IMG/VR virus record: IMGVR_UViG_3300042291_000844
Coordinates: 1-64,000 of that record
Direction: 5' to 3' (one strand)
DNA length: 64,000 nt
DNA from: a virus
Taxonomy: Duplodnaviria; Caudoviricetes
A program made the translations under genes and the position numbers. The notes under the pieces were generated by a model. The model worked only from the letters and a program-made list of their open reading frames with translations. It searched no databases and was not told where the DNA came from. This document shows, one piece after another, positions 8,675-51,013 of the stretch. Within the stretch, counting starts at the first letter, position 1, and the number at the start of each line of letters is the position of its first letter.

Positions 8675-8941
8675 TTAGTAATCAAATCCTAAATATTTTC
8701 TAACTGATTGAGGTATTGCCTTTTTAACTGCTTCTTTATCGCCACCGAATCGTTTTTCAATAGTTTCACGAGCAGTTTCGATTGATTCGTCTGCATCTTT
8801 TATTGCTTTAGCTATATTTTTATCACTTTTTAAATTACGACTTAATATAGATAAAAATAAATTACTAATAAATCCTTCTTTCAATTTATGTTTAGTATAA
8901 ATTTCTTTAAAAAGTTGTCTATCTTCTTTTGTTAATTTCAT
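8675..8941 (-). CDS. Hypothetical protein
   Basis: 88-aa ORF with AGGAG RBS (TAGGAGAACCTTATG) and its own late-type motif at 8963-8970. Confidence 0.8.
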   Translation of the reverse strand: MKLTKEDRQLFKEIYTKHKLKEGFISNLFLSILSRNLKSDKNIAKAIKDADESIETARETIEKRFGGDKEAVKKAIPQSVRKYLGFDY

Positions 8942-8962
8942 AAGGTTCTCCTATTATACTCC

Positions 8963-8970
8963 TATAAATA
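8963..8970 (-). promoter_or_regulatory. Late-type motif
   Basis: Plus-strand TATAAATA, between a terminator and the TMP operon. Confidence 0.65.
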
Positions 8971-8978
8971 TAAGACAT

Positions 8979-9007
8979 AAAAAAAGTGAGGAATTTATTT
9001 CCTCACT
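8979..9007 (-). terminator. Rho-independent terminator
   Basis: Stem AGTGAGGAA/TTCCTCACT (8985-8993, 8999-9007) followed by a T7 run on the minus strand. Confidence 0.8.
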
Positions 9008-9234
9008 CTTACACCTGGTCCTTTTGATGGTTGGTTATTTTTTTGTGCTTTATTTGCATTATCACTTTCTCGTTTCTTTGTATCTACCAATTCTTTGTAA
9101 TAAAAATTTCTTAAATGAACTGGTAATCTATATACATCCGATTGAATGAACCCATTTCCATGATAACATAATTCAAAAATTTGTCTATGTAATAGGATAG
9201 AATAATTACTCGGTAGGCCAAAAAAAGCTAACAC
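8995..9234 (-). CDS. Tail assembly chaperone second segment (gp51-like); may be expressed by frameshift from the upstream gene
   Basis: GTG start with no RBS, 29-nt overlap with the upstream gene across a T7 run; product ...FFGLPSNYSILLHRQIFELCYHG... Confidence 0.7.
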   Translation of the reverse strand: MLAFFGLPSNYSILLHRQIFELCYHGNGFIQSDVYRLPVHLRNFYYKELVDTKKRESDNANKAQKNNQPSKGPGVRVRK

Positions 9235-10066: not shown

Positions 10067-10555
10067 TTAGAATTCAAGTATTGCATAATCGTAAGCTAAC
10101 GTTAATGTGATTTCTGCCGGGTCATTTGATGTCCAATCTAACTCACCAAATTGTGCGTTTAAGATAAATGCACCTTTGATTTTCCAGTTTTCGATTTTAT
10201 CACCTACTGGTCCTAACATATAGATATCAATATCTTTTTTGTAGAAATCTGCATATCCATCACGTCCTGTTAGGGATTCATGTGAAGTTCTAACCCACTC
10301 CATTACTGCTTGTGCACCTGATGGAACGATTGGGTCATACAATGTGATTTCTAAATCTTGCCACTCACCTTTACCTTTCAACTTTCTTTTTAAGTTGATG
10401 TGTTCTAATGTTACAGCTTCAAACTGAATGTTTGGTCTGTTAGCGGTTTTGATAAGATATGAAGGGATACCACCGATTTCCATGATGAAACGATTTTTCA
10501 TCTTTGGTTCAAAGTTGGTATAGAACATTTCGTTAAACTCTAATATTTCTGCCAT
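10067..10555 (-). CDS. gp19: Tail tube protein (T4 gp19-like)
   Basis: 162 aa; EPKMKNRF...WQDLEITLYDPIVPSGAQAVMEW...GAF...FGELDW...LTLAYDYA; directly after the sheath gene; TAGGAG RBS. Confidence 0.92.
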   Translation of the reverse strand: MAEILEFNEMFYTNFEPKMKNRFIMEIGGIPSYLIKTANRPNIQFEAVTLEHINLKRKLKGKGEWQDLEITLYDPIVPSGAQAVMEWVRTSHESLTGRDGYADFYKKDIDIYMLGPVGDKIENWKIKGAFILNAQFGELDWTSNDPAEITLTLAYDYAILEF

Positions 10556-10577
10556 TTTTATTTTCTCCTATTATATT

Positions 10578-10609: not shown

Positions 10610-12961
10610 TTATGCTGAGAACGATGCTCCAGTCGGTAAGATGTTGAAATCTAACACGATGAATTCAGCGGTTTTTGTTGGTTGTAAGAAAATCTGTCCA
10701 GCCAATATATTTCTATCAATTACATCAGGAGTGTTATTACTCTCATCCATTATTACTCTAAATGCATATAAACCTTGTCTTTGTTGAATTGCTTCTAAAT
10801 AAGGATTAACTGTATTTAAGAATCTTGAACGAGTGGTAGAAGTATTTTGTTCGAATACTAAGTATCTTGATGTAGAAGCGATATACTTCTTAACTTTGAT
10901 AAGTAATCTTCTAACATTAATTCTATCTAACGCTGATGATTTTTCTTGTAATGTTTTCTGTCCAAATGCCACGATACCCTCGCCAGGGAAAGATGCGATA
11001 GGATTTATTTTTCCTTCGTATAATGTATCTCTCTCTGCGTGTGTTAATCTATTCAATACTGAAACTGCTCCTACGATTCCACCACGATTTAAACCAGCTG
11101 GTGCGAACCATTCTGCTGCAACCGCGTCATTTGCTGCGAAAATACCTGGCATCAATACTGATGGTGGTACTGCAGTTAATCTGTTGGTGTTTCTATCGAT
11201 TGTCTTAACCCACGGGTAGTAAGTACCTACATAGTTAGAATCTACGTTAGAACCTTCCGTTACCGCTTGGTCAATTGTATCATCTTGTCCTATTACATCA
11301 CCAATAAAGAATACATCTTCACGATTCTCACACATTTCAGTTATATAATCAAATACATATCCATGATGTCTACGAACTATACCAGGTGCTGCGATTATAT
11401 TGATATCAAAATCATCAGGATTAGATACCGCATCGATTGCTTTCTTATATGCAACCGAACCATTTGAAATTGATGTTGTAAAGCTAAATCCCTGTGAATT
11501 ACCTGCTGATATATCAGAACCTTTATCAATTGTTATTGTTGGCGTTACACCATCAAACCCACCTTGAAATCCTAATGTAAATTGTCTTTTAGCAATTTCA
11601 GTAGCATCATCATCAGTTGCTAATGTGTAACCAAAATTATATGTTGAAACTGAACCGCTTACAATAGCGGTTATATCACCATCAAATGTAAAATCAACGT
11701 TAGCTCCAGCTGTTGCTGATGCTGGGATTGGTTTTAAGTATTGTAAGTTGTTTATCTTAATTGTAGCAGTTTCTAAATCAATACCAGAATATCTATATGT
11801 AGATGATGCTGTATTGTTAGCAGAACCTGTTGAATAAATAACTGCAGGAACTAATGATTCTAAACTATTTCCAACATAAATTGGGTTAGTATATGCCTCA
11901 TGTCCAAAAGGTGCTGCTATAATAGGGAATGAACCCTCCGGTGATACTACTACTCTAACTAATTTAGAACGATTTGCATAATCACCCGATTCGTTTTGTT
12001 TACCATTTGCATCAATTGTTAATCTTCTATCACCAATTACTTTAGCAATATAGTTTGGAGATGCAGGGTCTAAATTAACGTTATTATATGTTTCTTTTAC
12101 TGATTTTTTTCTATCGGTATCACTAAATCCACGAACTACTACTGAGAATGTTGCGTAATCAGTTGCACCTGATACTCCTGCTGCTTTAACGTTAAAAATA
12201 CTTACTTTGTATTCAGTATTGTATGGGTTACCATCACCTAATGTTTCAAATTTAAATAAATCACTTCTAACACCACTAATTAATTGAGATTTAACCATTG
12301 GAGTAGATGCGTATGTTGTATCTTCAGTAAAAGCTTGTGTTGCTAATTGAATAAGTTCAACATCAGAACCACTATTAAGTGAAACTGATGAATCAGTTGC
12401 CGTTTTTTCAAAATAAGTGTAAACATATGCATTTTTAGTTCCAAATGGAGATTCTCCAAATACATCACCAATATCGTTTCCTGCTGAAGGTAATACTGAT
12501 GCTGATATGAATACTCCTAAGTTAGAACCACTAATACTAAATACAGATGCAGATACGGCTGAACTGATTACTGAACCAGTAAGTCCTACGCTTTCATCAC
12601 CTGTATTAGTTGAATGTAATGTTGCTACAATTTTTCTTCCACCTTGTTCTGTCGAACCACTCACTGCAATTGCAATTGGATTTACTTGTGAATATCCACC
12701 TAAGTGACCAACACGAACAATAGTAACTGTTCCTGCTTCTCTTAGATAGTTTTGTACTGCGTACCCTGTATAGTATGTTCCATCAGGTGTACCGAATATT
12801 TCTTCAAATTCTGATTGTGTATTTACGATAGTTGGTAAGAATGCTGGTCCTTTACTAAAAGGTCCTACTATTGCTGCTCCAATTTCTCCGATACCTTGTG
12901 ATAAAAATGATAAATCATTCTCTCTTGTGAATACACCAGGTGATACAATTTTTTCTGCCAT
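10610..12961 (-). CDS. gp18: Tail sheath protein (T4 gp18-like); start corrected to MAEKIVSPGV at 12961
   Basis: SPGVFTRENDLS N-terminus; WFAPAGLNRG, INPI, FGQKTLQ, DRINVRRL, PTKTAEFI sheath motifs; TAGGAG RBS 9 nt before the ATG at 12961. Confidence 0.95.
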   Translation of the reverse strand: MAEKIVSPGVFTRENDLSFLSQGIGEIGAAIVGPFSKGPAFLPTIVNTQSEFEEIFGTPDGTYYTGYAVQNYLREAGTVTIVRVGHLGGYSQVNPIAIAVSGSTEQGGRKIVATLHSTNTGDESVGLTGSVISSAVSASVFSISGSNLGVFISASVLPSAGNDIGDVFGESPFGTKNAYVYTYFEKTATDSSVSLNSGSDVELIQLATQAFTEDTTYASTPMVKSQLISGVRSDLFKFETLGDGNPYNTEYKVSIFNVKAAGVSGATDYATFSVVVRGFSDTDRKKSVKETYNNVNLDPASPNYIAKVIGDRRLTIDANGKQNESGDYANRSKLVRVVVSPEGSFPIIAAPFGHEAYTNPIYVGNSLESLVPAVIYSTGSANNTASSTYRYSGIDLETATIKINNLQYLKPIPASATAGANVDFTFDGDITAIVSGSVSTYNFGYTLATDDDATEIAKRQFTLGFQGGFDGVTPTITIDKGSDISAGNSQGFSFTTSISNGSVAYKKAIDAVSNPDDFDINIIAAPGIVRRHHGYVFDYITEMCENREDVFFIGDVIGQDDTIDQAVTEGSNVDSNYVGTYYPWVKTIDRNTNRLTAVPPSVLMPGIFAANDAVAAEWFAPAGLNRGGIVGAVSVLNRLTHAERDTLYEGKINPIASFPGEGIVAFGQKTLQEKSSALDRINVRRLLIKVKKYIASTSRYLVFEQNTSTTRSRFLNTVNPYLEAIQQRQGLYAFRVIMDESNNTPDVIDRNILAGQIFLQPTKTAEFIVLDFNILPTGASFSA

Positions 12962-12998
12962 TTTATTTACTCCTATTAAGTTTGTGTAATGATACACA

Positions 12999-35010: not shown

Positions 35011-35339
35011 AGTATTTCAAAATCTCCCTTCATTACAATATTATCGTTTGTAGTAATATCATATGCGTTTACAAAATTAGCTTTTTTAAATTTAACTAAA
35101 ATATCTGCATTATACCCTTCCATCACATAATCTTTTTCGGATATGTATTGCCCGTTAATAAATATATCAAAACGTGCGTGTTCGCTTCGTAAAGGTCTAA
35201 GAAAGGATTCTAAATCTTTAAGTTTAGTATTTTTTGCACCCCATACCCAATATAGTGGGTGATTCATATCCATTGGTATCAATGAATACTCATTTTGGTC
35301 TTCAATTTGTTTTAATATTTTATTTAAATCATATATCAT
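35007..35339 (-). CDS. Hypothetical structural protein
   Basis: 110 aa, ATGA-coupled; FDIFINGQYI motif resembles the C-terminus of 35336..36481 (FKVYINGVLI). Confidence 0.75.
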   Translation of the reverse strand: MIYDLNKILKQIEDQNEYSLIPMDMNHPLYWVWGAKNTKLKDLESFLRPLRSEHARFDIFINGQYISEKDYVMEGYNADILVKFKKANFVNAYDITTNDNIVMKGDFEIL

Positions 35340-36481
35340 AATTCAATAAATTTTCCAGTTACTGCTATTTCATCAGTAGTTTCTATTGGGTATCCTAATT
35401 CATCCTCATTTGGATTTTCTATAATTTCTGCACCATCAAAAACAAATTGAATTTCATTTGTAGTAGCATCATATGAATAAGTGTATTTTCTAAATGGGAT
35501 TAATACTCCATTTATATAAACCTTAAACCATTCTCCTGCAGCAACATATGTATTTCTCAATTCTGGCGGGCATATAGGTAATTTTACATTGGTTAACTTA
35601 ATAGTAGATGAGTTGATAAAGATTGGTGCAAATGAACTTCCCAATACACCACCTTGTGCCCCTCTAATAGTAATAAAATCAATTAGGTCTGAATATTCAT
35701 TATACATTTGTTGTCTTGTATAATTTACATTACCACCAGATAAATCAGTTTCTATACCCCATACTACTTTTTTAGGAGATAATGATTTTTTAGTAGTCGG
35801 TTGATTATCAAATTTTTCAGGTAATAAATACGCATTGACTGTCATTGTAAATGTAGTTCTTACAATTCTTTGTGCACCGTCTCCTACTTCCTGTTGATTC
35901 TCAAATGAATCTATTTTTGTACGAAATTTAAACCCAGATTGGTCTCCCCAATATTCATCCGTTGCATATTGAAATGCTTCAACGATTTTATTCATATGTT
36001 CGGTAAAATCTGTCCATATAATAACATCATAAGTTACACTAACATAATCCGGCATTGTTATATTATATTGTTCAACCGGTCTTTTAGTATCCGTCATTAG
36101 GCTAAACTTATCATACTTATGTTTTTTAGAATACATAGATATGGTAGGATATGATACATGACGATTCATTGTATTAGCCAATGATTCATCTCTAGCAATT
36201 GAATTTCGTTTGAATACAACTATTGGGGTTTGAACTTGTCCGTTTTTATCTCTTAAAAATCCATCTCTTCTTATAGCTTTCCATCTTTCTGGATTACCAT
36301 ATATTACAGGTACTTTTATTGATTCACCTAAAATTTCTAAACTAGGAACGACAGTATCTACCATATGTTCAGCAATTGCTAAATCAACATCATATAACTT
36401 CACTCCTTTAAACTGATTTTTGGGTTCAGTTTTAAGTTGTTCTGCTCTATTTAGTGGTTTTTTTAGTGGGTCTACTGCCAT
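35336..36481 (-). CDS. Tail completion / sheath stabilizer (gp15-like) with C-terminal extension
   Basis: VPVIYGNPERW...P.Y..VTY.V.IWT...MNKIVE; neck-region synteny. Confidence 0.7.
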   Translation of the reverse strand: MAVDPLKKPLNRAEQLKTEPKNQFKGVKLYDVDLAIAEHMVDTVVPSLEILGESIKVPVIYGNPERWKAIRRDGFLRDKNGQVQTPIVVFKRNSIARDESLANTMNRHVSYPTISMYSKKHKYDKFSLMTDTKRPVEQYNITMPDYVSVTYDVIIWTDFTEHMNKIVEAFQYATDEYWGDQSGFKFRTKIDSFENQQEVGDGAQRIVRTTFTMTVNAYLLPEKFDNQPTTKKSLSPKKVVWGIETDLSGGNVNYTRQQMYNEYSDLIDFITIRGAQGGVLGSSFAPIFINSSTIKLTNVKLPICPPELRNTYVAAGEWFKVYINGVLIPFRKYTYSYDATTNEIQFVFDGAEIIENPNEDELGYPIETTDEIAVTGKFIEL

Positions 36482-37041: not shown

Positions 37042-38193
37042 TTATCCTATGTATATTGCTAATGGAACTGATTTAATTATTTTTTGTTGTTGTTCAACCA
37101 TATTGGATTCATTTTCCATTCTGGTCTTTTTACTAACCTCTTCTAAGTTTTCTCTCAATTGAGTTACTAATGATTCCTTTTCAGTTTGTGCTTCTGCCCT
37201 TAGTGCTGCACCATCCAATGAAACATCCGAACCAGGAATTGGTATAGTAGAATATTTTTCTCTAATTGCACCTAATAATTCTTTAGCAAGTGCAAGAGTA
37301 TATTTTCTAATCCATTGTTTACCAACATCATTGATTTTTGAATAATCTTGAAACTGATATCCAACATTTGAATAATCACTTACAACATTAGGGGTTATTA
37401 TAGTATTTCCTTCTCTAAAATCTTTCTTAACCATATACTCAAACCACAACCTTTCAGCTTTAGTTGGTATTGGGAATATTTGTATTTTATTATTTACAAT
37501 ATTGAATGTAAATGCAGATTTACGGAATTGGTCATTAAATTCAATTGCTTGAATTCTTAACATATCCTCATACATTGGCATTAGAATGAATTGTGCTGCG
37601 GGTGAGAACGAACCAAAGCCAAATTCATCAATTAAGTTCAAAGTACCTTGTCCACTTACTGAATACGGGTCAAAGAAACGTGATATTGCAGGTGTTGCTT
37701 CATGATATACTCTTGTTATATCAATTCGTTCACCACTTTCACTTACATCACCCCATAGTTCTTGTAAATCATAATTTTGATTACCAGCTTGAACTACGAT
37801 ATTTCCTTTTTTAATATCAATTCTACCACCAACATTTGCTTGAGTACCATAACTTTCTGCAATAGTAATTACATTGTTTAATTCGCTACCTAATACTGAT
37901 TTGTTAGTAAAATTTGAACTTGTGGGTTGACCTTCAAGGGCACCCATATTGTTTCGTATGTTAAATTGATTAACTTGTGCAGAATATTCACTCACCGCCT
38001 CTTCAAACACCGCAAAGAAACTACTTGATATCAATTCTACATCTACAATTGGATAACCTAACCTTTGTGCACACCACGATGCAACTTTAGGGGCATCTAA
38101 TTGAAAGTTTGAATCATTATCATATAATCCGAATGGGGTAGATGAACCAGTAACGAAAGTTGCCGTACCTGTCCATACTCTTGATTGCGACAT
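37042..38193 (-). CDS. Neck protein (gp13-like); start corrected to MSQSR at 38193
   Basis: RLGYPIVDVEL, WIRKYTLALAKELLG..R.KY..IPIPG..VSLDG..L motifs; TAAGGAG RBS before 38193. Confidence 0.85.
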   Translation of the reverse strand: MSQSRVWTGTATFVTGSSTPFGLYDNDSNFQLDAPKVASWCAQRLGYPIVDVELISSSFFAVFEEAVSEYSAQVNQFNIRNNMGALEGQPTSSNFTNKSVLGSELNNVITIAESYGTQANVGGRIDIKKGNIVVQAGNQNYDLQELWGDVSESGERIDITRVYHEATPAISRFFDPYSVSGQGTLNLIDEFGFGSFSPAAQFILMPMYEDMLRIQAIEFNDQFRKSAFTFNIVNNKIQIFPIPTKAERLWFEYMVKKDFREGNTIITPNVVSDYSNVGYQFQDYSKINDVGKQWIRKYTLALAKELLGAIREKYSTIPIPGSDVSLDGAALRAEAQTEKESLVTQLRENLEEVSKKTRMENESNMVEQQQKIIKSVPLAIYIG

Positions 38194-39545: not shown

Positions 39546-39812
39546 TTAATACTCAATCATTGAGACCGGTACGTTGTATGAAGCAAATCCACCTTTTACT
39601 CTCAAATTGGCTTTAGTTCGGTTGATTTTAACAACCTCTAACTCTCTACCCATTAATTTGGGGTGATTTACTTTAACCGTCATACCTACTTGCAATGACA
39701 ATTTCTTTTCTAACGATTCTATGGTACGTTTTTGCTTAATCAGTTCAATAACCATTTGGTTAACATTACGCAATTCTGCTACTGATAATTTTGATAATTC
39801 TGAATAATTCAT
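39546..39812 (-). CDS. Small hypothetical protein, C-terminal KOW/SH3-like fold
   Basis: LQVGMTVKV...VVKINRTKA...YNVPVSMI. Confidence 0.75.
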   Translation of the reverse strand: MNYSELSKLSVAELRNVNQMVIELIKQKRTIESLEKKLSLQVGMTVKVNHPKLMGRELEVVKINRTKANLRVKGGFASYNVPVSMIEY

Positions 39813-39835
39813 GTCTTTTATGTTTTAAATTTTAA

Positions 39836-40048
39836 TTAATCTATTTCGCCAAATACTCTAATCCATTCCTCATTGGTAATCCCCGTCATAAGGAACTCCC
39901 TTTCGTCCATTGTTAAGTTTGGAACGATGTTTTGTATCAATTCCGTTGAATTGCGACGATTCTCTATTCTTAATAACTCATCTTGAGTAACATTGATATT
40001 CAATGTATGTTCAATACCGGTTAAACTGCTGATTTTTGTAATATTCAT
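39836..40048 (-). CDS. Small hypothetical protein
   Basis: 70 aa; IQNIVPNLTMDEREFLMTGIT..EW; A-rich leader. Confidence 0.75.
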   Translation of the reverse strand: MNITKISSLTGIEHTLNINVTQDELLRIENRRNSTELIQNIVPNLTMDEREFLMTGITNEEWIRVFGEID

Positions 40049-40066
40049 ATTTTTATATTTTAAGGG

Positions 40067-40309
40067 TTACCAACACAACATATCTCCTGCCTTATCCCAA
40101 CTTCTAGCACCACTTTCGGTTGCTTTGTGAAGTGTATTGTAATCCACATCTAAGTTGGAATTACCGAACTGGCGTTTAAGTTCTGATTTGAATTCCGTAA
40201 GGTTCTTAGCCCAAACATCGTTGAACCCACCACTTACCCAATTGAATTGGTATCGGTATTCACCTTTTGAATTCTTTAACAATCTTTCATACTTTGCTCT
40301 ATGTTTCAT
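40067..40309 (-). CDS. Small hypothetical protein
   Basis: 80 aa; first gene after the promoter at 40354-40383. Confidence 0.75.
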   Translation of the reverse strand: MKHRAKYERLLKNSKGEYRYQFNWVSGGFNDVWAKNLTEFKSELKRQFGNSNLDVDYNTLHKATESGARSWDKAGDMLCW

Positions 40310-40353
40310 AATTTTATATTTTATATTTTATAGTTTATTATCTCTCAATCTTA

Positions 40354-40383
40354 TAAAGCTAATCTACAACTTTTTTTCCACAT
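40354..40383 (-). promoter_or_regulatory. Bacteroidota-type sigma-A promoter candidate (early), copy 1
   Basis: Minus strand ATG-N19-TAGCTTTA, compared with the Flavobacterium consensus TTG-N19-TAnnTTTG; paralogous to 40996-41025. Confidence 0.6.
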
Positions 40384-40407
40384 TTCCTAATATTTTAGGA
40401 CTTATTT

Positions 40408-40716
40408 TTATAAATAAGTTGGGCCATAATGAGACCATTTAGCTGTCCCCTCAAATATGTTTCCTCTACTATGTTTAGCCGGGGCTCTCCAACTGGCAGG
40501 TTTCATTAAATCACCTTTCTTAACCGGAACTCCCATATGGTAACCATCAAACATTGAAACGAACGCCCATACGTGGTTACTATCCATAATTTTCATAAAC
40601 TTAGAACCCTTTTTAACCTTTAACGGGGTATAATCACTATAATACTCACCCGATTCGTGTCTTTTTTTACGGTCTGCATCAACCTTTGCTAACCAAATTT
40701 CAAATTGCGTTTTCAT
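40408..40716 (-). CDS. Small hypothetical protein of a type common in T4-like phages
   Basis: VWAFV...GDLMKPASWRAPAKHSRGNI motif. Confidence 0.8.
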   Translation of the reverse strand: MKTQFEIWLAKVDADRKKRHESGEYYSDYTPLKVKKGSKFMKIMDSNHVWAFVSMFDGYHMGVPVKKGDLMKPASWRAPAKHSRGNIFEGTAKWSHYGPTYL

Positions 40717-40728
40717 ATATCTTATATT

Positions 40729-40959
40729 TTATTTTAACCATAAATTGTAAACATAATCATACTTTACATTCAAAGTCTCTGCAAGTTTCTCAAACAATCT
40801 CTCTCTGATTACACTATCGGTAACACCAATGTATCGGTAAACATCCTCACCAACAATCAGTTTATTTAATAGACCGGGAAATGTGGGGGTTTCATTCAAT
40901 TCTAATCCCAAATCATCGGTTGGGAAGTTCTCTACATAATACTCTTTAATTGTGCTCAT
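40729..40959 (-). CDS. Small hypothetical protein
   Basis: 76 aa; VGDSV.RE.LF..LAE...V.YDYVY.LW pattern. Confidence 0.75.
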   Translation of the reverse strand: MSTIKEYYVENFPTDDLGLELNETPTFPGLLNKLIVGEDVYRYIGVTDSVIRERLFEKLAETLNVKYDYVYNLWLK

Positions 40960-40995
40960 ATTTTTTATATTTTATTTGTTTATCTCCTAATCTTA

Positions 40996-41025
40996 TAAAG
41001 CTAAACTACACATTATTTTCCACAA
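40996..41025 (-). promoter_or_regulatory. Bacteroidota-type sigma-A promoter candidate (early), copy 2
   Basis: Minus strand TTG-N19-TAGCTTTA. Confidence 0.65.
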
Positions 41026-41078
41026 TTCCAAATTATTTCCCATTTATTTTCACTTTTTTTGTAAAATTTTTCATTGAT

Positions 41079-41119
41079 TATCAATGAGTTATGGGAGGTT
41101 GACTATCAATGAGTTATGG
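41079..41119 (+). repeat. 16-nt direct repeat x2, each matching the IHF consensus
   Basis: TATCAATGAGTTATGG at 41079-41094 and 41104-41119; fits WATCAANNNNTTR. Confidence 0.7.
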
Positions 41120-41123
41120 ACAT

Positions 41124-41154
41124 AAAAAAAGGGAGAATATTTCTATTCCCCCTT
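41124..41154 (-). terminator. Terminator after the major capsid gene
   Basis: Minus strand GGGGGAATA-GAAA-TATTCTCCC followed by T7 (one G-U pair). Confidence 0.85.
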
Positions 41155-41207
41155 CTTTATTATCGAATCGTTAGTTTGATTCAGTTATCGATTGTTCTTT
41201 ATCTAAA

Positions 41208-42836
41208 TTAGATAGAAGCCAAATCTTTAACATAAATCTTACCATAGAATTCTGGACGGACCATCTTCTTAGCGTAACGAGTCATAACACCACGACGAGG
41301 CGTGAAGTTAGATGGGTCGTACACTAATGGAGTCATAATCAATGGTACATATGGAGCATAAACCGCACCAGTCTCAAGGAAGTTACTTCCTTTGAATCCT
41401 AATAAGATTTCGTTAGAAGTCATATAAGGGTTCTTGTAAACTGTGTAACGAGATGCCAAAGAACCTACTTGAGATACACCAGCTGCGAAAGATGTAGCAT
41501 CTTTATCAGCGTTAACTGTAAATCCAGGAATTGATTCTAAGATAGTACAAACATCTGGAGATGCAACGATGAAGTTAGCACCACCACGTAATGTTAATTG
41601 GTGAATCTTGTTAGAAACTTTGTTCAATTTAACACCTAATGTTTGGAACCATGTATTTTTTTGGTATGCCAATGAATTGTTACCTGCTGACCAAGTACCT
41701 GCTGCTGCATTGTACTCTTCACCGATTGAAGCAGACCAGTAATCAACTGTCAAAGCATTTGATTTTAACATATCTAAGATTTCTAAGTCAATCTCTAAAG
41801 AGATATATTCAGATAACATAGAAGTTAATTCAGCTTCAGCATCGATTGAGTGATATGCATTCAAATCTTGTGCCAATTCTGGAGTCCACACTGCTTTTAA
41901 CTTACGAGTCTTAGCAACGATTGCCTCAGAACGTAATTCTAAGTCAACTTCTGGAATACCTAAATCAGTTGCTGGTTCAGTTGGGTTACCATCTTCGAAA
42001 TCACCACGAGTGTTTGAAGTTGGAGCCTGTGCATATTTAACAGTGATTTGTGTGTGAGCACCAGCTGTGTATTTAGCATAGAATACGATATTATCACCAT
42101 CAACTTTAGTAAATTGAGGATAGAACGCATCAGCAGCAGAGAATGCTGAAGATGAGAAGTAGAATGAACGTACACCATCTAAATCTGGTCTTGATAATTC
42201 TGATTTAGGGAATACAACTTTTCTTAATCCGCCTGTTGCAGTACCTAAAGCTACTGATGCAGATAAAGATGAATCGAATCCAACTTCTGCCCATGTTGCA
42301 GAACCAGTACTGATTACATCAGCAGATGCTACTAATGAACTAGATTCGTTAACTGTATAACCATAACGACCTTCACCATAAAGACCGTTTACTGCAGATT
42401 TAGTTCTACCGAAATCACCATCAAATGTTGAAGTACCTGCACCACCGAATAAAGATTTTCCAGAAAATGCTGGATTACCTGGAACTGCAGTACCATATTT
42501 GAAGTCTAGATAGAATATAAGACCTGAAGGTAAGTTCATTGGTTGAACTGAAACGAATTCTTTCGCTGCAATTTCACCAAAGATTCTTCTTACTAATGGT
42601 AAAGCGACGCCAGACCATTCTTCAGAACCTGCTGAAGTACCAGTTGCGGTAGCTTCATCCAATAATTGTTTCGCTTGGTTCTCTAATAGAACTGCGATTT
42701 GAGATTGCTCTCTTTCTTTTAAACCTTCTAAAAGACCAGTTGCTTCCCATTTGCTTTTCAATTGACGTGTTTCAGCCAACATTACCGCTTGTGGGTTCTT
42801 GCCTTCCATAAGTTTAGATAAATTAAAATTTGCCAT
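41208..42836 (-). CDS. gp23: Major capsid protein (T4 gp23-like)
   Basis: PLVRR, VSVQPMNLPSGLIFY, AKTRKLKAVWTPELAQDLNAYH.IDAEAEL, YAPYVPL, P..G.MTRY motifs; AAAGGAG RBS. Confidence 0.97.
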   Translation of the reverse strand: MANFNLSKLMEGKNPQAVMLAETRQLKSKWEATGLLEGLKEREQSQIAVLLENQAKQLLDEATATGTSAGSEEWSGVALPLVRRIFGEIAAKEFVSVQPMNLPSGLIFYLDFKYGTAVPGNPAFSGKSLFGGAGTSTFDGDFGRTKSAVNGLYGEGRYGYTVNESSSLVASADVISTGSATWAEVGFDSSLSASVALGTATGGLRKVVFPKSELSRPDLDGVRSFYFSSSAFSAADAFYPQFTKVDGDNIVFYAKYTAGAHTQITVKYAQAPTSNTRGDFEDGNPTEPATDLGIPEVDLELRSEAIVAKTRKLKAVWTPELAQDLNAYHSIDAEAELTSMLSEYISLEIDLEILDMLKSNALTVDYWSASIGEEYNAAAGTWSAGNNSLAYQKNTWFQTLGVKLNKVSNKIHQLTLRGGANFIVASPDVCTILESIPGFTVNADKDATSFAAGVSQVGSLASRYTVYKNPYMTSNEILLGFKGSNFLETGAVYAPYVPLIMTPLVYDPSNFTPRRGVMTRYAKKMVRPEFYGKIYVKDLASI

Positions 42837-42871
42837 TTTATTTTTTCTCCTTTGGGGTTGTTTTTTTTTGT

Positions 42872-43987: not shown

Positions 43988-44136
43988 TTGTTTTCTTCCT
44001 TTACTTTTTTTTCTGAAAATATTGAGTGATTTTCAATCGAATTGATTAAGTTAGTTGTTCGGTGACCTCACATAAGGGTGGGTATTCATTAACCAACGGG
44101 ATAAAATTAAACCTACATTAAGTAGGTTATTATAGA

Positions 44137-44144
44137 AATAAATA
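44137..44144 (-). promoter_or_regulatory. Late-type motif
   Basis: Plus-strand AATAAATA upstream of the scaffold/capsid leader. Confidence 0.6.
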
Positions 44145-44185
44145 TATAAATGTTTACGAAACCGCAAAATTTATGTAAAATATTT

Positions 44186-44488: not shown

Positions 44489-44524
44489 TAATTGTATTTA
44501 AATTGTGTTTGTAACTTATTTGGT

Positions 44525-44532
44525 AATAAATA
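44525..44532 (-). promoter_or_regulatory. Late-type motif
   Basis: Plus-strand AATAAATA upstream of bS21. Confidence 0.6.
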
Positions 44533-44545
44533 TGTCTTTTATAGA

Positions 44546-45619
44546 TTATTTGCTTAAAAGGAACAATGCTTCTTCAGCTTCTTGTTGATTTTTAATCTTT
44601 GGGTCTTTATACATATCTACTTTATATCCTCTTAACGCATTTGATAAGAATATCATATACTTAGGATGTCCTAATTTTTCTTCTAACGTAGAAAGTGAAT
44701 CATAGAACGATTGCTCGTTTCCTTTATTCATTTTTTCTGCTGCTTTGAATTCTTCTTTATGTTTATCAATATATGATGCAGTTGAATCTTTATATCCGTA
44801 TTGTGCTTCGTTTACTTTACCACAATCAACACAATTAGTTTTAGATTCTTCTAATGGCCATTGTTTCAACCACTTTAACCACTCTTTAGTATTCCAATCG
44901 TTTCTTTGTCTTGCATCTACTTTATAGTATTTTGCAAATACATCTTTTAATTCTGATTTGTAATTAGCAAAACCGGGTATTTTAGATGTAACGTTTACAA
45001 ATTCATTTGCACTAGCGTAATGTTCCATTGAGTTAGATAACATATCTACTAATGCTAACATTGCTTTATCATTACCTAACGCTTCGTTTACTGATTCATT
45101 CTTTGGAACACAATTAGGAACTTGAGCACCACCTTTACCTGGTTTCATTCCTATCATCTCATATCCTTTCCAACATGGGTCTTTCTCCCCACCTTGTAAT
45201 TTACCATCTTCTCTCAATCCCAAACGTTCTCTCATTTGTTCTTCAGAAATTTCACCAATTTTATAGTAACGAGATAGGATATGTCCCATATCTTCGTATA
45301 ATCCATGTAATCTTTGGTCTAAGTTCTTTGCTTCTATTGCAACTTGGTCGAATGATTTACCTAATTTAGTTAATTCATTCATATTACGTTTAACAGTATG
45401 TGCATCAAACCAATCATCTGCTTCGTTTACCGCCAATTCTCTAGCTGCATCGGTAATACCACCTAAAGTTTCTGCAACTTCAGTAATATCTGATTTTCTA
45501 TCCATCATTTCTTGATACTTGTTGTATGTAGAAACGATTTCTAAGAAATGTTTTTTTACTTCGTTAGAAAATCTTTTTGGTTCTTCACCTTCTTTAACTA
45601 TCTTTGATAAACGTATCAT
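44546..45619 (-). CDS. Putative internal head protein, modular
   Basis: N-term MIRLSKIVKE; internal ESVNE; TAGGAG RBS; lies in the head cluster. Confidence 0.6.
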   Translation of the reverse strand: MIRLSKIVKEGEEPKRFSNEVKKHFLEIVSTYNKYQEMMDRKSDITEVAETLGGITDAARELAVNEADDWFDAHTVKRNMNELTKLGKSFDQVAIEAKNLDQRLHGLYEDMGHILSRYYKIGEISEEQMRERLGLREDGKLQGGEKDPCWKGYEMIGMKPGKGGAQVPNCVPKNESVNEALGNDKAMLALVDMLSNSMEHYASANEFVNVTSKIPGFANYKSELKDVFAKYYKVDARQRNDWNTKEWLKWLKQWPLEESKTNCVDCGKVNEAQYGYKDSTASYIDKHKEEFKAAEKMNKGNEQSFYDSLSTLEEKLGHPKYMIFLSNALRGYKVDMYKDPKIKNQQEAEEALFLLSK

Positions 45620-45629
45620 TTATTATCTC

Positions 45630-46988
45630 CTATTTTACTAATTTTGCTAATTTTATTGATTCTGATTTAAATGGATTAAATAATCCTCTATTATTTACTT
45701 CCTTTTCAGTAGATGGTGCAACTTTTGCATTTTGTTGGTGTTTGTTCTTTATTGGATTATATTTTTCCAATTCATCAACATTAACATTACCATCTGCATC
45801 GGTTTTAACCTCGCCCGATTTATCATCACCCATTCTTACAATACCAACTGTCTTTGTTCTTGTATTATATACTAAATCATCTTTTTTGAATTTACCTTCA
45901 TTTGTAGTATCTTTTGTTTTAAGTACGTCTGCAAATGTATTTTCAATTTCATCCATCATATTGAATTCATTTAATTCATCCCAATCAAATGATGTTTTTA
46001 ATTTAGTCCAATTTATTTTTTCGTTTTTAGGTGCACCCGATACAATTGTCCAAATCAAGTCATTACATACTTTTATTTTAGCATCTTTATCTTGTGAATA
46101 TTTAGGATTATCTAATGCTTTTATAGTAGTATCATATACTGCTTTAACATTGTTGTATGCTAACTCTTTTCTAGTATAATGTATATCAGCTAATTTTTTA
46201 GCTGCAGCTTCTCTTTTTTTCTTAAAGTATGGAATTATATCTAATATGTCTTCATTTACCATTTTTGATAACGAAAGTCTACCTTCATTCTTCATATATG
46301 GTTTATTATCAAATACTGATTGAATTAAATCCGCTTCTTTATGAAATCCATTCATCCTTAATGTAAATGCTATACCATCTGCTGCATCAACTCCATCCCA
46401 TCCTGATGCTTGTGATACATCCGTACCATAATCATCAATCTCACCAGTTCCGTTCATATAAACCGAACCATCTGCCGAATTCTTACGAATATCAGCCATT
46501 TTCTCTTTATACTTAGGGTCTTTGATTGACGGATATTCAGGTTTCTTTGCAAATTCAGGTTTTCCCTCAATCGCTGCTACTAATTCTCTTGCCTCACTAT
46601 GGAAGTTTGAATCAGTTAGTGCAGAAACTGCTGCTTGAAACATTGCTTCTTTATATTTTTCATTACCCAACTTTTGTGGAGTAATTCCTGATTTCTCAGC
46701 TAATTTCTTAGCATCTTTATTTACCGATGGATTACCTGGTCTTTTCTTTTTAGGTTCTGATGTTGGTTCATCCTTCTTAGGTTCTGCTGCAGGAGTATTA
46801 AATATATTTGCGGTTGGTGTAGATGCCTTTTTAGAAACATCGCCCCCTTTACCATCTGCTTTTGAGTGAGTTCCTGCTTTGATTGCAGAATCTCTACTAT
46901 CCTTTGATTTGAACACCGATGTTTTACCGGTCTTCTTATTAGTAGCAGTAAACGTTTCTTCGTTAAGTAAATTATTTAATTTAATCAT
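45630..46988 (-). CDS. Putative internal head protein, modular
   Basis: N-term MIKLNNLLNE; internal xxNE junctions; AGGA RBS. Confidence 0.6.
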   Translation of the reverse strand: MIKLNNLLNEETFTATNKKTGKTSVFKSKDSRDSAIKAGTHSKADGKGGDVSKKASTPTANIFNTPAAEPKKDEPTSEPKKKRPGNPSVNKDAKKLAEKSGITPQKLGNEKYKEAMFQAAVSALTDSNFHSEARELVAAIEGKPEFAKKPEYPSIKDPKYKEKMADIRKNSADGSVYMNGTGEIDDYGTDVSQASGWDGVDAADGIAFTLRMNGFHKEADLIQSVFDNKPYMKNEGRLSLSKMVNEDILDIIPYFKKKREAAAKKLADIHYTRKELAYNNVKAVYDTTIKALDNPKYSQDKDAKIKVCNDLIWTIVSGAPKNEKINWTKLKTSFDWDELNEFNMMDEIENTFADVLKTKDTTNEGKFKKDDLVYNTRTKTVGIVRMGDDKSGEVKTDADGNVNVDELEKYNPIKNKHQQNAKVAPSTEKEVNNRGLFNPFKSESIKLAKLVK

Positions 46989-47007
46989 TAGTTGATGTTC
47001 CTATATT

Positions 47008-47448
47008 TTAAAATCCTATTGAGACCGTTTTATTATCAAATTCTATCCAACGTATTTTTAATGCAATTAAATCTTTTAAATCTGATGGGTCTAATCTCCA
47101 ATTTTTTTCTGCCATTTCAATATCAGCGATATTACCATGAATACCATCCCAAATTGTAATAACTTTACCATTAAAGAATTTTAAGAATTGTTGTACTTGT
47201 TTTTGTTTGTTAGAATCTAATTCTTTTAATTCAATTTCTGATGCCTCTTTAATTACCCTTTTAGTTTCAGTTAATACAGTTTTATGTGTATAAAGGTCTA
47301 ACTTACCATCGGCTTTAATCTTAACCTCATAGTTAGTCTTACGAATATCGTTATGACCACCCTTAAAAGGTGTATCACCAACTTCTTTCTTAATACTACC
47401 CATTTCTATTTTGTTATCTCTTAGATAATCTTGTATTGAAAATGCCAT
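47008..47448 (-). CDS. Hypothetical head-region protein
   Basis: 146 aa, AAAGGA RBS, between the protease and internal-protein genes. Confidence 0.7.
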   Translation of the reverse strand: MAFSIQDYLRDNKIEMGSIKKEVGDTPFKGGHNDIRKTNYEVKIKADGKLDLYTHKTVLTETKRVIKEASEIELKELDSNKQKQVQQFLKFFNGKVITIWDGIHGNIADIEMAEKNWRLDPSDLKDLIALKIRWIEFDNKTVSIGF

Positions 47449-47458
47449 ATTGTATCCT

Positions 47459-48058
47459 TTATGCTAATTCAGTAATGATTTCTCTCATAAGGTCTTGTGC
47501 CTTACAATACTCACCACAAACTATAGCTTGTTCTTTTAATTGTCTATTTACTGATTCATTCATCGTAACCGGTGTCATAAATGCACCATGTGTAGATGGG
47601 TTAGAAACAAAATCCCAACCAATCAGTTCAAAATCATCACCCACTTTTACTTTACCTTCGCCAATGTTAACTACCGAACCCATACCACGAGAGGAAATAC
47701 CCAAAAGGATACCTGCTCTTAATAATTCTTTTAAGATGTTACCTGATGGGGTTGGTAGAATTTCTACTGTGCCACAAAGGTCATCACCTTCCCAATGAAT
47801 TTCTTTTACGTTATGTGAAACATTCTTTAAGTTGATAATACCAGAATCTGGATGGTCTAACTCTCCTAATGCACGTCTTTCTTTAATAAGAACTTCGTAT
47901 TTCTTTGCTTCACGCATTAAGATTTCTTTAGGGTATATACGACCATTTTGGTTTTCTGCAACCGCTCTTTGAAGAATACCTTTAACTAAGGTTCTACCAT
48001 TTGAATCTTCATTCAATTTTCCTTCAAATAATGTTGTTTCTATTAATAAATTTTTCAT
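47459..48058 (-). CDS. gp21: Prohead core protease (T4 gp21-like); start corrected to MKNLLIE at 48058
   Basis: NQNGRIYP, ALGELDHP, NVSH, TPSG, LGISSRGMGS, WDFVSNPSTHGA motifs. Confidence 0.95.
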   Translation of the reverse strand: MKNLLIETTLFEGKLNEDSNGRTLVKGILQRAVAENQNGRIYPKEILMREAKKYEVLIKERRALGELDHPDSGIINLKNVSHNVKEIHWEGDDLCGTVEILPTPSGNILKELLRAGILLGISSRGMGSVVNIGEGKVKVGDDFELIGWDFVSNPSTHGAFMTPVTMNESVNRQLKEQAIVCGEYCKAQDLMREIITELA

Positions 48059-48234
48059 TATGCTCCCCACGTTTTTCTCTTTTTAAAGAGGTCAAAAAAT
48101 ATTGCAGATACTTCTCTACGAATAATATCACGAATAAGTTTTTCATCCTCAGTTGTGATTTCTTCTTTGACGATACCCCATTTTACTTTGGTTATCTCTT
48201 CGTTAATAATATCTAACAATCTTTTTCGTGTCAT
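48058..48234 (-). CDS. Small head-region protein missing from the ORF track (58 aa)
   Basis: Manual translation MTRKRLLDIINEEITKVKWGIVKEEITTEDEKLIRDIIRREVSAIFFDLFKKRKTWGA*; fills the gap exactly and overlaps the protease start as TAATG. Confidence 0.8.
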   Translation of the reverse strand: MTRKRLLDIINEEITKVKWGIVKEEITTEDEKLIRDIIRREVSAIFFDLFKKRKTWGA

Positions 48235-48236
48235 TG

Positions 48237-48719
48237 TTATTTTTTCTTTACTAATTCGTTTACACCTTCTACTAAATGTAGAACAAAATCACCATTACCA
48301 TTTGATTTTACTACTTTATATTCTTTTTTCTTACCACCGGAATTGATAGTTATTTTTTCACCAACTTTAAATGCGTTTTTATCACCAGTTTTTAATACAG
48401 CAGGTCCATCGTAATCTTCGTTTACTGATTCGTTTGCTTTTTTACCAGCTCTTAAATCTGCTAAATCATCACTACCGATATCACCATCTTTATCAACATC
48501 TAATTTCTTTTGGCCACCAACTAATTCTTCATTCTTCTCGCCCTTACCATTCCATGCTGCATCAATTTTATCAAAGAATGCTTTCTTTTCTTCATCTGAC
48601 ATAGATGGAATTGATTTTCCAGCTTTATCTAATGCTTTTTGAAAGAATGCCTGATATTCATTTTCTTCAGTCATTACTCCTTTGATGATTTCTTTTAATC
48701 GTGTACGTGATATTTTCAT
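48237..48719 (-). CDS. Putative internal head protein
   Basis: MKISRTRLKEIIKGVMTE N-terminus; ESVNE junction; LDVDKDGDIGSDDL EF-hand-like loop. Confidence 0.6.
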   Translation of the reverse strand: MKISRTRLKEIIKGVMTEENEYQAFFQKALDKAGKSIPSMSDEEKKAFFDKIDAAWNGKGEKNEELVGGQKKLDVDKDGDIGSDDLADLRAGKKANESVNEDYDGPAVLKTGDKNAFKVGEKITINSGGKKKEYKVVKSNGNGDFVLHLVEGVNELVKKK

Positions 48720-50095
48720 TATTTTTCTATCTCCTGTATTGTTTTCGCTATGTTGATTAATCGTTCCTTTATCTTATAAATATGTCCATGCGTTCTTTTC
48801 CAAAATGTATCGGAACTCAATTCATTCATAGTCTTAATTTGATTATACCAACGGAAAAAAGTTTCAACTTCTTTTAATTGATATTTTAATTCTCTCAAAC
48901 CAGTTGCTAACTTCTTATTAGCATGCATTGATTCATCGTTTTTTAATTCTAACCAACGATTTACCGGTCTTTGAATTTTCTTTCCCTCTGATAAACTCTC
49001 ATCCATATGTTCTAAACCATATTTCATAATAGTTTTATCATCTAACATCTTACCATTAAGAGTAAACATACGTTTACCTTTATAATAAACTGACCAATTA
49101 CCTTGTGGGGTTGCATCGACAGTAATATTTTTTAAATCCTTTATACTTCTATCATTAACTTGAATAGCATCTAAGAATTTTTCTGCTTTAGGGTCTAATG
49201 CTTCGTTTACCGATTCATTTGTTGATACAAATAATCTTACTGAAAGAATTACATCTTTATCTATATTTAAACTTCTTACTTTATTTTTTTCTAAATCGTA
49301 AGCCGGATTGATTGTATTTGCTTTTGCAATTACACCATCTTTAACAAAGTGTGGTTGTAATCCAGAATAGTTATCATCTCTAAACATAAAAACATCTTTA
49401 GGAGAATCCTTAGATATTTTAATTATTTTCTTTAAACCTTCCTTACCGATAAAACATCCACCTTCACATTTACTTCCACCATAAGTTTTACCTTTTTGTA
49501 ATGATGCTTCGTTTACCGATTCACCTAATCTATCAAGCATTCCACTTACAACTTTATTAGTTATTTTATGGTTATTATCATTAAAAGCTTTTAAAATTGC
49601 GTGATATACATTTGTACCACCTTTAACATTTTTTTTCTCTATTTTTAGTTTTTTACCATTTTTTAATGTTACTAAAATATAGTGTGGGTTTACAAATTCA
49701 TCCCAATCTTTGTAGATGGGTGCATCTTCGTTTACTGATTCGTATTTAATCATATCGGGGTCAAACTTGTCAAAATTCTTCTTTGCCCATTTAACGGCAT
49801 CTTCATAAGAATTAAATTTAATCCTATCTTGTTTGAATCCCTTTTTCTTATTTAGAAAATCAATATAAACTTTGTCTTCATTTATGGATTCATCAATATT
49901 ATTAATATCATTATTTACTAATGTATAACCGAATTGTGTTGCAGTTTTTTTTCTTTTTTTATCAGAATTTTTACCAGAAAAGGCATGAGGAGTATCGTAA
50001 CCATCAACATTACCTGTCACATTGGCTTCATCTAATTCATCTTCGACTTCCTTAATAAGTTCGTCTATAAAAGATTTAATATTTTTTTCTGACAT
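48719..50095 (-). CDS. Modular putative head protein with five ES(V/I/L)(N/S)E-delimited cassettes
   Basis: ESINE, ESVNE x3 and ESLSE separate unrelated 45-110 aa modules. Confidence 0.65.
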   Translation of the reverse strand: MSEKNIKSFIDELIKEVEDELDEANVTGNVDGYDTPHAFSGKNSDKKRKKTATQFGYTLVNNDINNIDESINEDKVYIDFLNKKKGFKQDRIKFNSYEDAVKWAKKNFDKFDPDMIKYESVNEDAPIYKDWDEFVNPHYILVTLKNGKKLKIEKKNVKGGTNVYHAILKAFNDNNHKITNKVVSGMLDRLGESVNEASLQKGKTYGGSKCEGGCFIGKEGLKKIIKISKDSPKDVFMFRDDNYSGLQPHFVKDGVIAKANTINPAYDLEKNKVRSLNIDKDVILSVRLFVSTNESVNEALDPKAEKFLDAIQVNDRSIKDLKNITVDATPQGNWSVYYKGKRMFTLNGKMLDDKTIMKYGLEHMDESLSEGKKIQRPVNRWLELKNDESMHANKKLATGLRELKYQLKEVETFFRWYNQIKTMNELSSDTFWKRTHGHIYKIKERLINIAKTIQEIEK

Positions 50096-50945
50096 TGGTT
50101 ATTTCCTTTATTAATTCGTATGATATCATCAACGCTGAAACCTGTTCATCCGTAATTTTCTTTCCTATCTTTTGTGTTTTCAAAACATTGATAGTTTCTT
50201 TTAATTTAATTTTTGTGATTTTATCATTAACTTCGGAATGTAATTTGTGAAGTTCAGTTACTACTTTCTTTAATTGTGAATCGTAGTATTCACCGAATTT
50301 AGATGTATTATTAACATTATTAATAAATTCTCTTAAAAGACCTTTTTGGTCGTCGTTTAAGTTAGTGTATTTGGTATTAAATGTTTCAACTAGTATTTTA
50401 TATGTCAACAATCTCAAATCTTTTTCTTGATTCTTATATGTTTCCATTAATTTATCTTCAATCTTCTTAATAGATACTGTGGTTGTAGATACGTGTTCTA
50501 CTAATGTAATCTTAGCATCAAATACATCCTTAACATTAGTTACATCTTGTATCTTTGCTTCAAAAATCTTATGAACCGATGCTAATACTCTATAATTAGA
50601 AACAGGAGAAGCAACAAATTCTTCAATATCGAAATTTTCTTTAATAGCTTTTACTAAGTTATACTTTTCTCTTAATAATTTAGTTTCATCTAATTTAGTA
50701 CGAGTTTCGATAATAGCATCAATAAATTTTTCTGCTTTACTTTCTGAATTATATTTTTCAGTTGTAAGTAAATTGAATAAACGCAATTCCTTTGCTAATT
50801 CGGTTTTACCACCAAAAAATTCTTGTACTATTTTTTTAGCCTTCTCAACTGGAGCATTATTTAAAATCTCCAATGTGATTTGACGAGTTAAGAGTTCAAA
50901 TAAAAACCCTGTATTTTTAAATTTCGAATGTTTAATTTTTTTCAT
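50076..50945 (-). CDS. Conserved hypothetical helical protein downstream of the portal
   Basis: 289 aa; KHSKFKNTG.LFELL motif; AAGGA RBS. Confidence 0.75.
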   Translation of the reverse strand: MKKIKHSKFKNTGFLFELLTRQITLEILNNAPVEKAKKIVQEFFGGKTELAKELRLFNLLTTEKYNSESKAEKFIDAIIETRTKLDETKLLREKYNLVKAIKENFDIEEFVASPVSNYRVLASVHKIFEAKIQDVTNVKDVFDAKITLVEHVSTTTVSIKKIEDKLMETYKNQEKDLRLLTYKILVETFNTKYTNLNDDQKGLLREFINNVNNTSKFGEYYDSQLKKVVTELHKLHSEVNDKITKIKLKETINVLKTQKIGKKITDEQVSALMISYELIKEITNVRKKY

Positions 50946-51013
50946 TGTATTTTAAATCCTTATTTTGATAGACTCAAATTTCTATATATAAATATAAAAA
51001 ATTCTAAGTTAGA

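Follow-up and report, generated by a model that had tools for sequence, protein, structure and literature searches.

The 64,000-nucleotide stretch of phage DNA analysed here (the window; positions 1 to 64,000 of the IMG/VR virus record IMGVR_UViG_3300042291_000844) covers the late morphogenesis module of a T4-like jumbo phage (~250-290 kb) from lakes, and it encodes a homologue of the ribosomal protein bS21, with its gene placed after the prohead-core genes and before the scaffold-capsid pair. Roughly one in three genes of the window has a predicted Shine-Dalgarno (SD) site with an (A/U)AAGGAG-like motif, mainly for products needed in hundreds of copies. The bS21 gene itself lacks such a site, and its product is altered at both positions that contact the 3' tail of 16S rRNA in Bacteroidia. 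Of the ribosomal proteins encoded by phages, bS21, known there since 2019, is the most frequent, and the ribosomes of Bacteroidia are the best-understood case of a hidden anti-SD, with bS21 as the controlling part. We regard it as quite possible, although short of probable, that the phage re-tunes the ribosomes of its host via bS21, so that the SD-led mRNAs of high-copy proteins gain.

Predicted Shine-Dalgarno sites and the phage bS21 protein

The 20 nucleotides (nt) upstream of each of the 54 gene starts were scored by their pairing free energy (dG) with ACCUCCUUU, and shuffled leaders as well as 1433 internal ATGs of the window were used as controls. Values of -6 or lower are found at 13 of the 54 genes, compared with 2.1 +/- 1.2 in shuffled leaders and 7.3% of the internal ATGs (binomial p ~1e-4), and values of -7 or lower at nine genes, where 1.2 are expected. 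The score distribution is two-humped, with about half of the genes at 0 to -1 and 17 at -5 or lower; a value of -4.0 or lower is reached by ~20% of random ATGs. The first G of the GG core is located 8-15 nt from the ATG, or 17-18 nt in three doubtful cases, and the end of the best-pairing stretch is 3-14 nt away from it (3-12 nt in all but one doubtful case), a spacing that is ordinary for the predicted SD at most sites. By computation, pairing with the 16S 3' tail at a distance of 4-12 nt from the start is present above chance.

The sites are enriched among the genes whose products are presumably required in high copy number. This group contains capsid, scaffold, protease, seven prohead-core genes, three neck/tail-completion genes, sheath and tube, and all other genes form the second group. 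An SD is present at 11 of the 15 presumed high-copy genes versus 6 of the 39 others (Fisher p 1e-4), the grouping having been made partly after the data were seen. Because six genes of the second group also carry a site and the classes are partly post hoc, the pattern represents an enrichment, and the original prediction that SD sites are restricted to abundant structural genes goes too far. The leaders it quoted for capsid, tube, sheath, neck and scaffold are each present exactly as written. Likewise, bS21, portal, the large terminase (TerL) and the five small genes at 39546-40959 show no complementarity (dG 0 to -0.4), in line with the absence of an SD claimed for them. Its eleven further sites were called strong, which holds for part of them only, since six are weak at -3.9 to -4.9 (9961, 14666, 28374, 37035, 46988 and 50945), and its list of SD genes was incomplete, missing the sites of the protease (GGGGAG) and of the genes at 48719 (AGGAG), 50095 (AAAGGA), 36481 (GAGGAG) and 6108 (GGGAG). 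Within the prohead core, SD-like sites precede 45619 (-7.3), 47448 (-5.5), 48719 (-7.4) and 50095 (-5.7); those of 46988 and 50945 are weaker and 48234 has none. The SD-less class, including portal, terminase, fibres, baseplate and bS21, possesses A/U-rich, G-free leaders of host type.

The phage protein belongs to the bS21 family, matching PF01165 over residues 8-59 with 55.9 bits (cut-off 27) as well as PHROG 21469 and the bS21 chains of the PDB. The bS21 of Bacteroidia combines a signature Tyr54, which stacks on A1534, with a less basic C-terminus, and its Ile55 provides a further contact to the 16S tail (PMC7797042). In HMMER alignments made with the family profile, Arg58 and Glu59 of the phage protein align to Tyr54 and Ile55 of the Flavobacterium johnsoniae chain 7jil_z, the alignment being gap-free from the conserved KP to position 54. 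The same Arg/Tyr match is found in alignments to 9i5v_9 (KAIY) and to the bS21 of a Flavobacterium metagenome-assembled genome (MAG; KAAY), and the earlier assignment of KAIR to the Tyr54 position is upheld by the first and the last of these. Arg occupies position 54 in 120 of 121 metagenome homologues. The Tyr54 plus Ile55 contact signature is therefore missing from the phage protein, and so is the short, less basic C-terminus: the host tail after position 54 consists of 10 residues (IQNMKDALEN), whereas that of the phage protein has 42 residues, a net charge of +7 and a KKKKK run. The phage family is about equally distant from all solved bS21 structures (28-32 bits singly), and the best PDB match of its profile is a KAIY-type chain. 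A tblastn search of phage bS21 against cultured phage records gave no match, and no bS18 or bS6 genes were found in five relatives.

Relatives and the probable host

Contigs of 286 and 289 kb, with bS21 proteins 87% and 63% identical to that of the window, preserve the gene order TerL-portal-core-protease-bS21-scaffold-capsid. The SD state is conserved gene by gene in five relatives with bS21 identities in the range of 63-87% (L001, L003-L005 and G020). In L001 and L003-L005, the capsid gene has AGGAG, the scaffold gene has AAGGAAGGT (-7.5), and several core genes, the protease and the neck gene also carry sites, while bS21, portal, TerL and the small genes lack them. The portal gene does have an SD in two more distant relatives, G003 and G004. 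The bS21 gene is SD-less in all 13 loci scored with an Arg-, Tyr- or His-type protein, even beside SD-led scaffold and capsid genes. In addition, the DNA polymerase of the 286-289 kb contigs (L001, L004) did not turn up in a polymerase homologue search.

Two kinds of controls lack this pattern. In a Flavobacterium MAG of similar GC content, an SD of -5 or lower precedes 4 of 130 genes and none reaches -6; its own rpsU leader scores -12.4. This low rate matches the published picture for Bacteroidia (PMC9976891, PMC13000453). No bS21 is encoded in the 160 kb of the Flavobacterium phage immuto. The SD rate of this phage, 0 of 37 genes behind the late promoter motif described below and 8 of 206 overall, is below the 21% found at its internal ATGs, and SD sites are therefore avoided in immuto. 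Moreover, the close relative G016 (capsid 69% identical), which has no bS21 at the syntenic site, shows an SD at one of 17 genes, capsid and neck both being SD-less.

The comparison of early and late genes covered the relatives G003 and G005. G003 is a complete relative of 252.6 kb with an Arg-type bS21, and its coding strand has 25 strict Bacteroidota-type promoters versus 3.6 expected. An SD precedes 1 of 33 genes behind these host-type promoters versus 11 of 38 behind the late motif (p 0.003), so the SD frequency of the two gene classes does differ in this genome, as the original prediction required. An enzyme cluster of G005 contains 38 genes in a row without an SD, except for one misplaced site. 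The bS21 gene of G003 does not adjoin its capsid gene but lies 105 kb away. Further genes of G003 specify GroEL, a family B DNA polymerase and a TonB-dependent receptor, the last immediately following a TAnnTTTG promoter (L105, L107, L108).

On indirect evidence, the host is likely a member of Bacteroidota. The SD-less leaders of the window are G-free and A-rich like those of immuto, and the promoter element TTTG-N20-TAnnTTAG in the window is a Bacteroidota-type sign. Besides its promoters, G003 shares the word TTCGTAT with immuto, and the Atlas look-alikes of its TonB-dependent receptor are all from Bacteroidota, although no close cellular relatives of this receptor were found in the species genomes searched. 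The nearest cultured relative by capsid infects Flavobacterium, and three contigs with an Arg-type phage bS21 (L008, L009 and L010, corresponding to C196, C197 and C207; see also L007) were binned with the Flavobacterium MAG G002. This MAG also has its own rpsU, which encodes a KAAY-type protein and carries the extended SD GAGGAGGUG. The strict Bacteroidota promoter was considered as a general host marker and rejected, as immuto has no copy of it, though G003 has 25.

These same features argue against a host outside the SD-blind Bacteroidia, in which demand-graded SD sites would be ordinary and a bS21 with Arg and a basic tail would be the usual SD-competent kind. Such a host would agree with the SD sites present at 39-64% of genes in the related G004, G007 and G009, with TTGACA-type promoter words in G006 and G011, and with the KPTT common to phage and E. 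coli bS21. Set against the leaders, the promoter element, the G003 evidence, the Flavobacterium-infecting capsid relative, the KAIY-type best chain and the Flavobacterium-binned contigs, we consider this explanation improbable. In G006 and G011 (L126-L132, L159-L162), the promoter words are CTTGACAT and ATTGACTTTT, a leader TGAGTTAATGATAACCTAATC is repeated and SD sites are scarce, suggesting that these members of the lineage infect a different host, from outside Bacteroidota.

Late promoter motif, leaders and gene content

The late-type motif (A/C)TATTTATA corresponds to the T4 late box TATAAATA read in reverse complement. The coding strand of the window has 15 copies (sites include 52806, 50994, 44532, 38230, 28408, 13366, 10585 and 8970) and the other strand none, and the motif is common to immuto and all relatives examined. 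The motif is located 27-63 nt upstream of SD-led genes, namely neck (37 nt), tube, 8941, 48719 and 50945, and it is equally found upstream of the SD-less portal and bS21 genes, a fibre gene, 13323 and the gene for a protein of 1847 amino acids (aa). E. coli-type sigma-70 promoters are not enriched in the window (93 versus 99.9 expected).

The 198-nt leader between bS21 and scaffold is conserved in the relatives whose bS21 is 63-87% identical. Its hairpin shows compensatory changes and its block GTTGGTTAATGAATACC...GACCGAACAAC is near-invariant; no Rfam match was obtained for this leader. At the leader position, a 197-nt gap is present even in G016, where bS21 is missing from the site. This conserved structured element could be taken to mean that the GGAG motifs serve as RNA processing or stability signals, or as sites for a phage translational regulator, instead of ribosome-binding sites, and at 35010, 18686 and 36481 the distance of 12-14 nt between site and ATG is greater than usual for an SD. 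We hold this explanation to be very improbable, since the motif is perfectly complementary to the 16S 3' tail, its spacing clusters at 4-10 nt, its distance from the late promoter motif is variable, and the GGAG core is kept in relatives while the flanks vary.

The five small SD-less genes behind the capsid gene are headed by the only host-type promoter elements of the window, TTTG-N20-TAGTTTAG, and are flanked by two terminators. This stretch (39546-41029) resembles a cassette transcribed by the host polymerase within the late module.

RNA evidence was taken from assembled contigs of four lake metatranscriptome runs, each from a different study, which were chosen with the bS21-capsid stretch. 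The depth of RNA contigs is 100-1274 for capsid, 30-126 for the contig with bS21, 1-17 for neighbouring head genes and 0-4 for the five-gene cassette; being contig depths from runs selected with this stretch, these values are weak evidence and provide no strict ranking of genes, and parts of the window without RNA cover do not count as silent. The roughly hundred-fold spread in depth argues against DNA carry-over. A single RNA contig bridges the region upstream of bS21, bS21, scaffold and the capsid start. In addition, RNA contigs in three lake metatranscriptomes join 37425 to 48441, skipping 11,015 nt with 15 other letters between, and probably represent a relative with different gene order or an assembly chimera.

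The window has a GC content of ~32%, and all its credible genes are on the minus strand (Table 1). Matches to Pfam and PHROG identify the gp23 capsid, gp20 portal, gp21 protease and gp17 terminase of a T4-like late module. The gp18 sheath, gp19 tube, gp13 neck and a gp25-like wedge were likewise matched, in part through Pfam labels in relatives, and the same scans show several fibre genes. No tRNA genes or Rfam families were found in a scan of the whole window. Four starts in the list of open reading frames were corrected (protease ATG 48058, neck ATG 38193, sheath ATG 12961 and the ATG 39470 of a 254-aa gene), because the longer GTG/TTG readings cross terminator hairpins or an upstream stop; the protease ATG overlaps the stop of the upstream gene. 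The N-terminus of the 1847-aa protein (55127-60670) matches a cytidyltransferase PHROG and the remainder is unexplained; pieces of this gene are separate genes in G003 and G005. Near or same copies of the stretch are found in lake-water metagenomes of 19 studies (20 runs), whereas a megablast search of 17 kb against cultured phage records gave no match.

Table 1 Location of the features of the late module within the window
Feature	Position	Strand	Evidence and start context
Large terminase (TerL)	52818..54401	-	phrog_2; SD-less
Portal (gp20 family)	51014..52744	-	phrog_213; SD-less; late motif 62 nt upstream
Prohead-core region, portal to bS21	44546..50945	-	seven unknown genes besides the protease
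Prohead protease (gp21 family, Peptidase_S77)	47459..48058	-	PF03420 E 8e-27; predicted SD GGGGAG 3 nt upstream, dG -7.0
Late-type promoter motif CATATTTATTA	44524..44536	-	44 nt upstream of bS21 ATG
Phage bS21, 100 aa	44186..44488	-	PF01165 E 3.5e-15; A/T-only leader, SD dG 0
Conserved 198-nt leader, bS21 to scaffold	43988..44185	-	late motif, hairpin, near-invariant block; alignment and consensus fold
Scaffold-like gene, 371 aa	42872..43987	-	assigned by position; SD AAAGGAAG at 43996-44004, dG -5.7
Major capsid protein (gp23 family)	41208..42836	-	PF07068 E 1.7e-76; SD AAAGGAG at 42846-42854, dG -8.9
Terminator hairpin behind capsid gene	41124..41154	-	sequence
Five small SD-less genes and promoters	39546..41029	-	two host-type elements TTTG-N20-TAGTTTAG-CTTTATAAG (40983-41029, 40341-40387)
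Neck protein	37042..38193	-	phrog_211; PF26809 (gp13 family) in relatives; SD AAGGAG at 38200-38208, dG -8.2
gp15-like tail completion gene	35336..36481	-	faint PF16724 in L001 orthologue; SD GAGGAG, dG -8.6
Tail-fibre genes, 934/516/214/1175 aa	19717..28374	-	SD-less or weak (0 to -4.2); two with late motifs
Tail sheath	10610..12961	-	phrog_23; SD AGGAG at 12969-12977, dG -6.8
Tail tube	10067..10555	-	phrog_4542; SD AGGAG at 10564-10572, dG -7.3; late motif 30 nt upstream
Unknown 88-aa gene	8675..8941	-	SD AGGAG, dG -7.3; late motif 29 nt upstream

Possible re-tuning of host ribosomes and known bS21 systems

On the basis of the enriched and conserved motifs, of the residues exchanged in bS21 and of the difference from the Flavobacterium phage without bS21, we infer for the presumed Bacteroidota host a path of ribosome entry, anti-SD release and translational gain. 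The SD-less bS21 mRNA, made from a late promoter, would be translated by ordinary, unconverted host ribosomes. Phage bS21 would then occupy the bS21 site on the 30S subunit in place of host bS21, where Arg-Glu instead of Tyr54-Ile55, together with the long basic tail, may weaken the hold on the 16S 3' tail in the bS21/bS18/bS6 pocket. The anti-SD so freed would provide a few-fold gain in initiation to SD-led high-copy mRNAs, as in the Y54A and deltaC mutants of F. johnsoniae. In this bacterium, bS21 Y54A, deltaC or bS21 depletion raises the output of an SD reporter 2-5 fold (PMC9976891), and mutations of the pocket free the 16S 3' tail (PMC13000457). The more far-reaching version, in which phage bS21 switches the initiation mode of an SD-blind 30S subunit and creates a private SD-dependent channel for the virion proteins in highest demand, appears to us possible but less likely than not.

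Several observations weigh against re-tuning through bS21. The 'late switch' of the original prediction is the wrong term, because SD-led and SD-less genes share the same late motif, which places the SD split within the late class; it looks like output tuning within that class. The strict motif TTTG-N18-21-TAnnTTTG is absent from the window as well as from immuto. Arg is able to stack on adenine, and Arg58 therefore need not abolish the contact with A1534. A freed anti-SD would also raise host rpsU, harming the phage unless host mRNA is gone. Among the relatives, G013 (44.7 kb) has an Arg-type bS21 and an SD at only 1 of 43 genes, and two further Arg-type loci (L025, L032) have no SD at the capsid gene, whereas four loci with a Tyr-type bS21 and a host-like short tail (L051, L071, L081, L091) have strong SD sites at scaffold and capsid. 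Residue 54 of phage bS21 as a predictor of SD sites at capsid and scaffold is ruled out by these seven, and the length and charge of the C-terminal tail are not significant predictors either (length, Spearman -0.37, p 0.17, n=15). G004 and G009, with a Leu/Ala-type bS21 and SD sites genome-wide, probably infect SD-reading hosts, and the bS21-scaffold-capsid synteny therefore predates any role specific to Bacteroidota. With such a mixed comparative record, residue 54 alone cannot explain SD use.

The main rival to re-tuning is that the SD sites tune expression independently of phage bS21, either by using ribosomes with a free anti-SD, for instance subunits without bS21, or as an inherited trait of the lineage. 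Phage bS21 would in that case keep late ribosomes replete and active, outcompete host bS21 in favour of phage leaders through its divergent N-terminal helix, or counter a host defence. We rate this rival as possible yet rather doubtful. It would account for G013 and for the SD sites at scaffold and capsid that accompany Tyr-, Arg- and Leu/Ala-type bS21 alike and also occur where no bS21 gene is near. In 31 of 80 related loci, the bS21 gene precedes scaffold and capsid on their strand, and residue 54 of its product is variously Arg, Tyr, His, Leu, Ala or Val; the arrangement is therefore old and not confined to a single type of host, which points to a general role. Moreover, some ribosomes of F. 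johnsoniae naturally lack bS21 and read SD sites (PMC9976891), and Chen et al. concluded that phage bS21 blocks the anti-SD like the protein of the host, SD by gene class not being analysed there (PMC9723584). On the other side, SD sites are avoided in Flavobacterium contexts (3% of MAG genes, 4% of immuto genes and none of the late immuto genes), and it would be surprising for the proteins in greatest demand to keep conserved SD sites that brought no gain. In addition, the sites are kept in all close relatives with a bS21 of the window type and are absent from capsid and neck of the bS21-less G016.

The phage unites a bS21 without both contact residues, conserved SD sites on the most demanded genes, an SD-less bS21 gene and a sister phage that lacks both bS21 and SD sites. 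This combination turns the vague idea that bS21 favours phage mRNAs into a precise, testable one, and if true, re-tuning would be a clear example of a virus altering the decoding rules of the ribosome by the swap of one protein. A literature search found no paper tying phage bS21 to SD-led phage genes. Watson et al. reported no relation between the ribosome-binding consensus of phage and host, with genes not split by class (PMC7550191). In an intracellular pathogen, translation is reported to depend on a bS21 paralogue, so that a change of ribosomal protein shifts the favoured mRNAs, the paralogue being cellular and not viral (PMC9578407).

Among phage systems, the Pelagibacter phage HTVC008M is also a T4-like myophage with bS21, and its protein enters E. 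coli ribosomes (Mizuno et al. 2019, PMC6375957). HTVC008M bS21 is 54% identical to that of its host and an apparent recent capture, whereas the present family is about equidistant from all solved bS21. The bS21 phages of Chen et al. (2022, ISME Commun) are, like the present one, large lake phages with bS21 among TerL, portal, protease and capsid genes; their bS21 is highly expressed with late structural genes and was proposed to substitute into host ribosomes (PMC9723584). In those phages, the residue at position 54 is aromatic in 61 of 61 cases and the gene is on the opposite strand (PMC9723584), whereas here position 54 is Arg (120/121) and the gene is on the capsid strand in 31 of 31 related loci, upstream of scaffold and capsid. 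The Arg54 and the same-strand gene therefore identify the present family as a different variant. The hosts of Chen et al. were assigned through CRISPR, while ours was assessed from promoters, SD-less leaders, the cultured relative and co-binned contigs. The phage immuto (vB_FspM_immuto, NC_055915) has the nearest cultured capsid (52% identity), the order TerL-portal-core-protease-scaffold-capsid and the late motif, but its entire genome is free of bS21 and its late genes all lack an SD.

The closest functional parallel is provided by the bS21 pocket mutants and the rpsU autoregulation of F. johnsoniae (PMC9976891, PMC13000457, PMC13000453, PMC7797042). Loss of Tyr54 or of the C-terminus frees the 16S tail in these mutants, and the phage bS21 is naturally altered at both contacts. 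The former are laboratory mutants of the host in which only rpsU, with its 13-bp SD, is affected, whereas the latter is a natural viral paralogue accompanied by many candidate SD sites of 5-7 nt. By analogy, a natural bS21 without both contacts, encoded by an SD-less mRNA and surrounded by SD-led neighbours, would fit the behaviour of the published pocket mutants.

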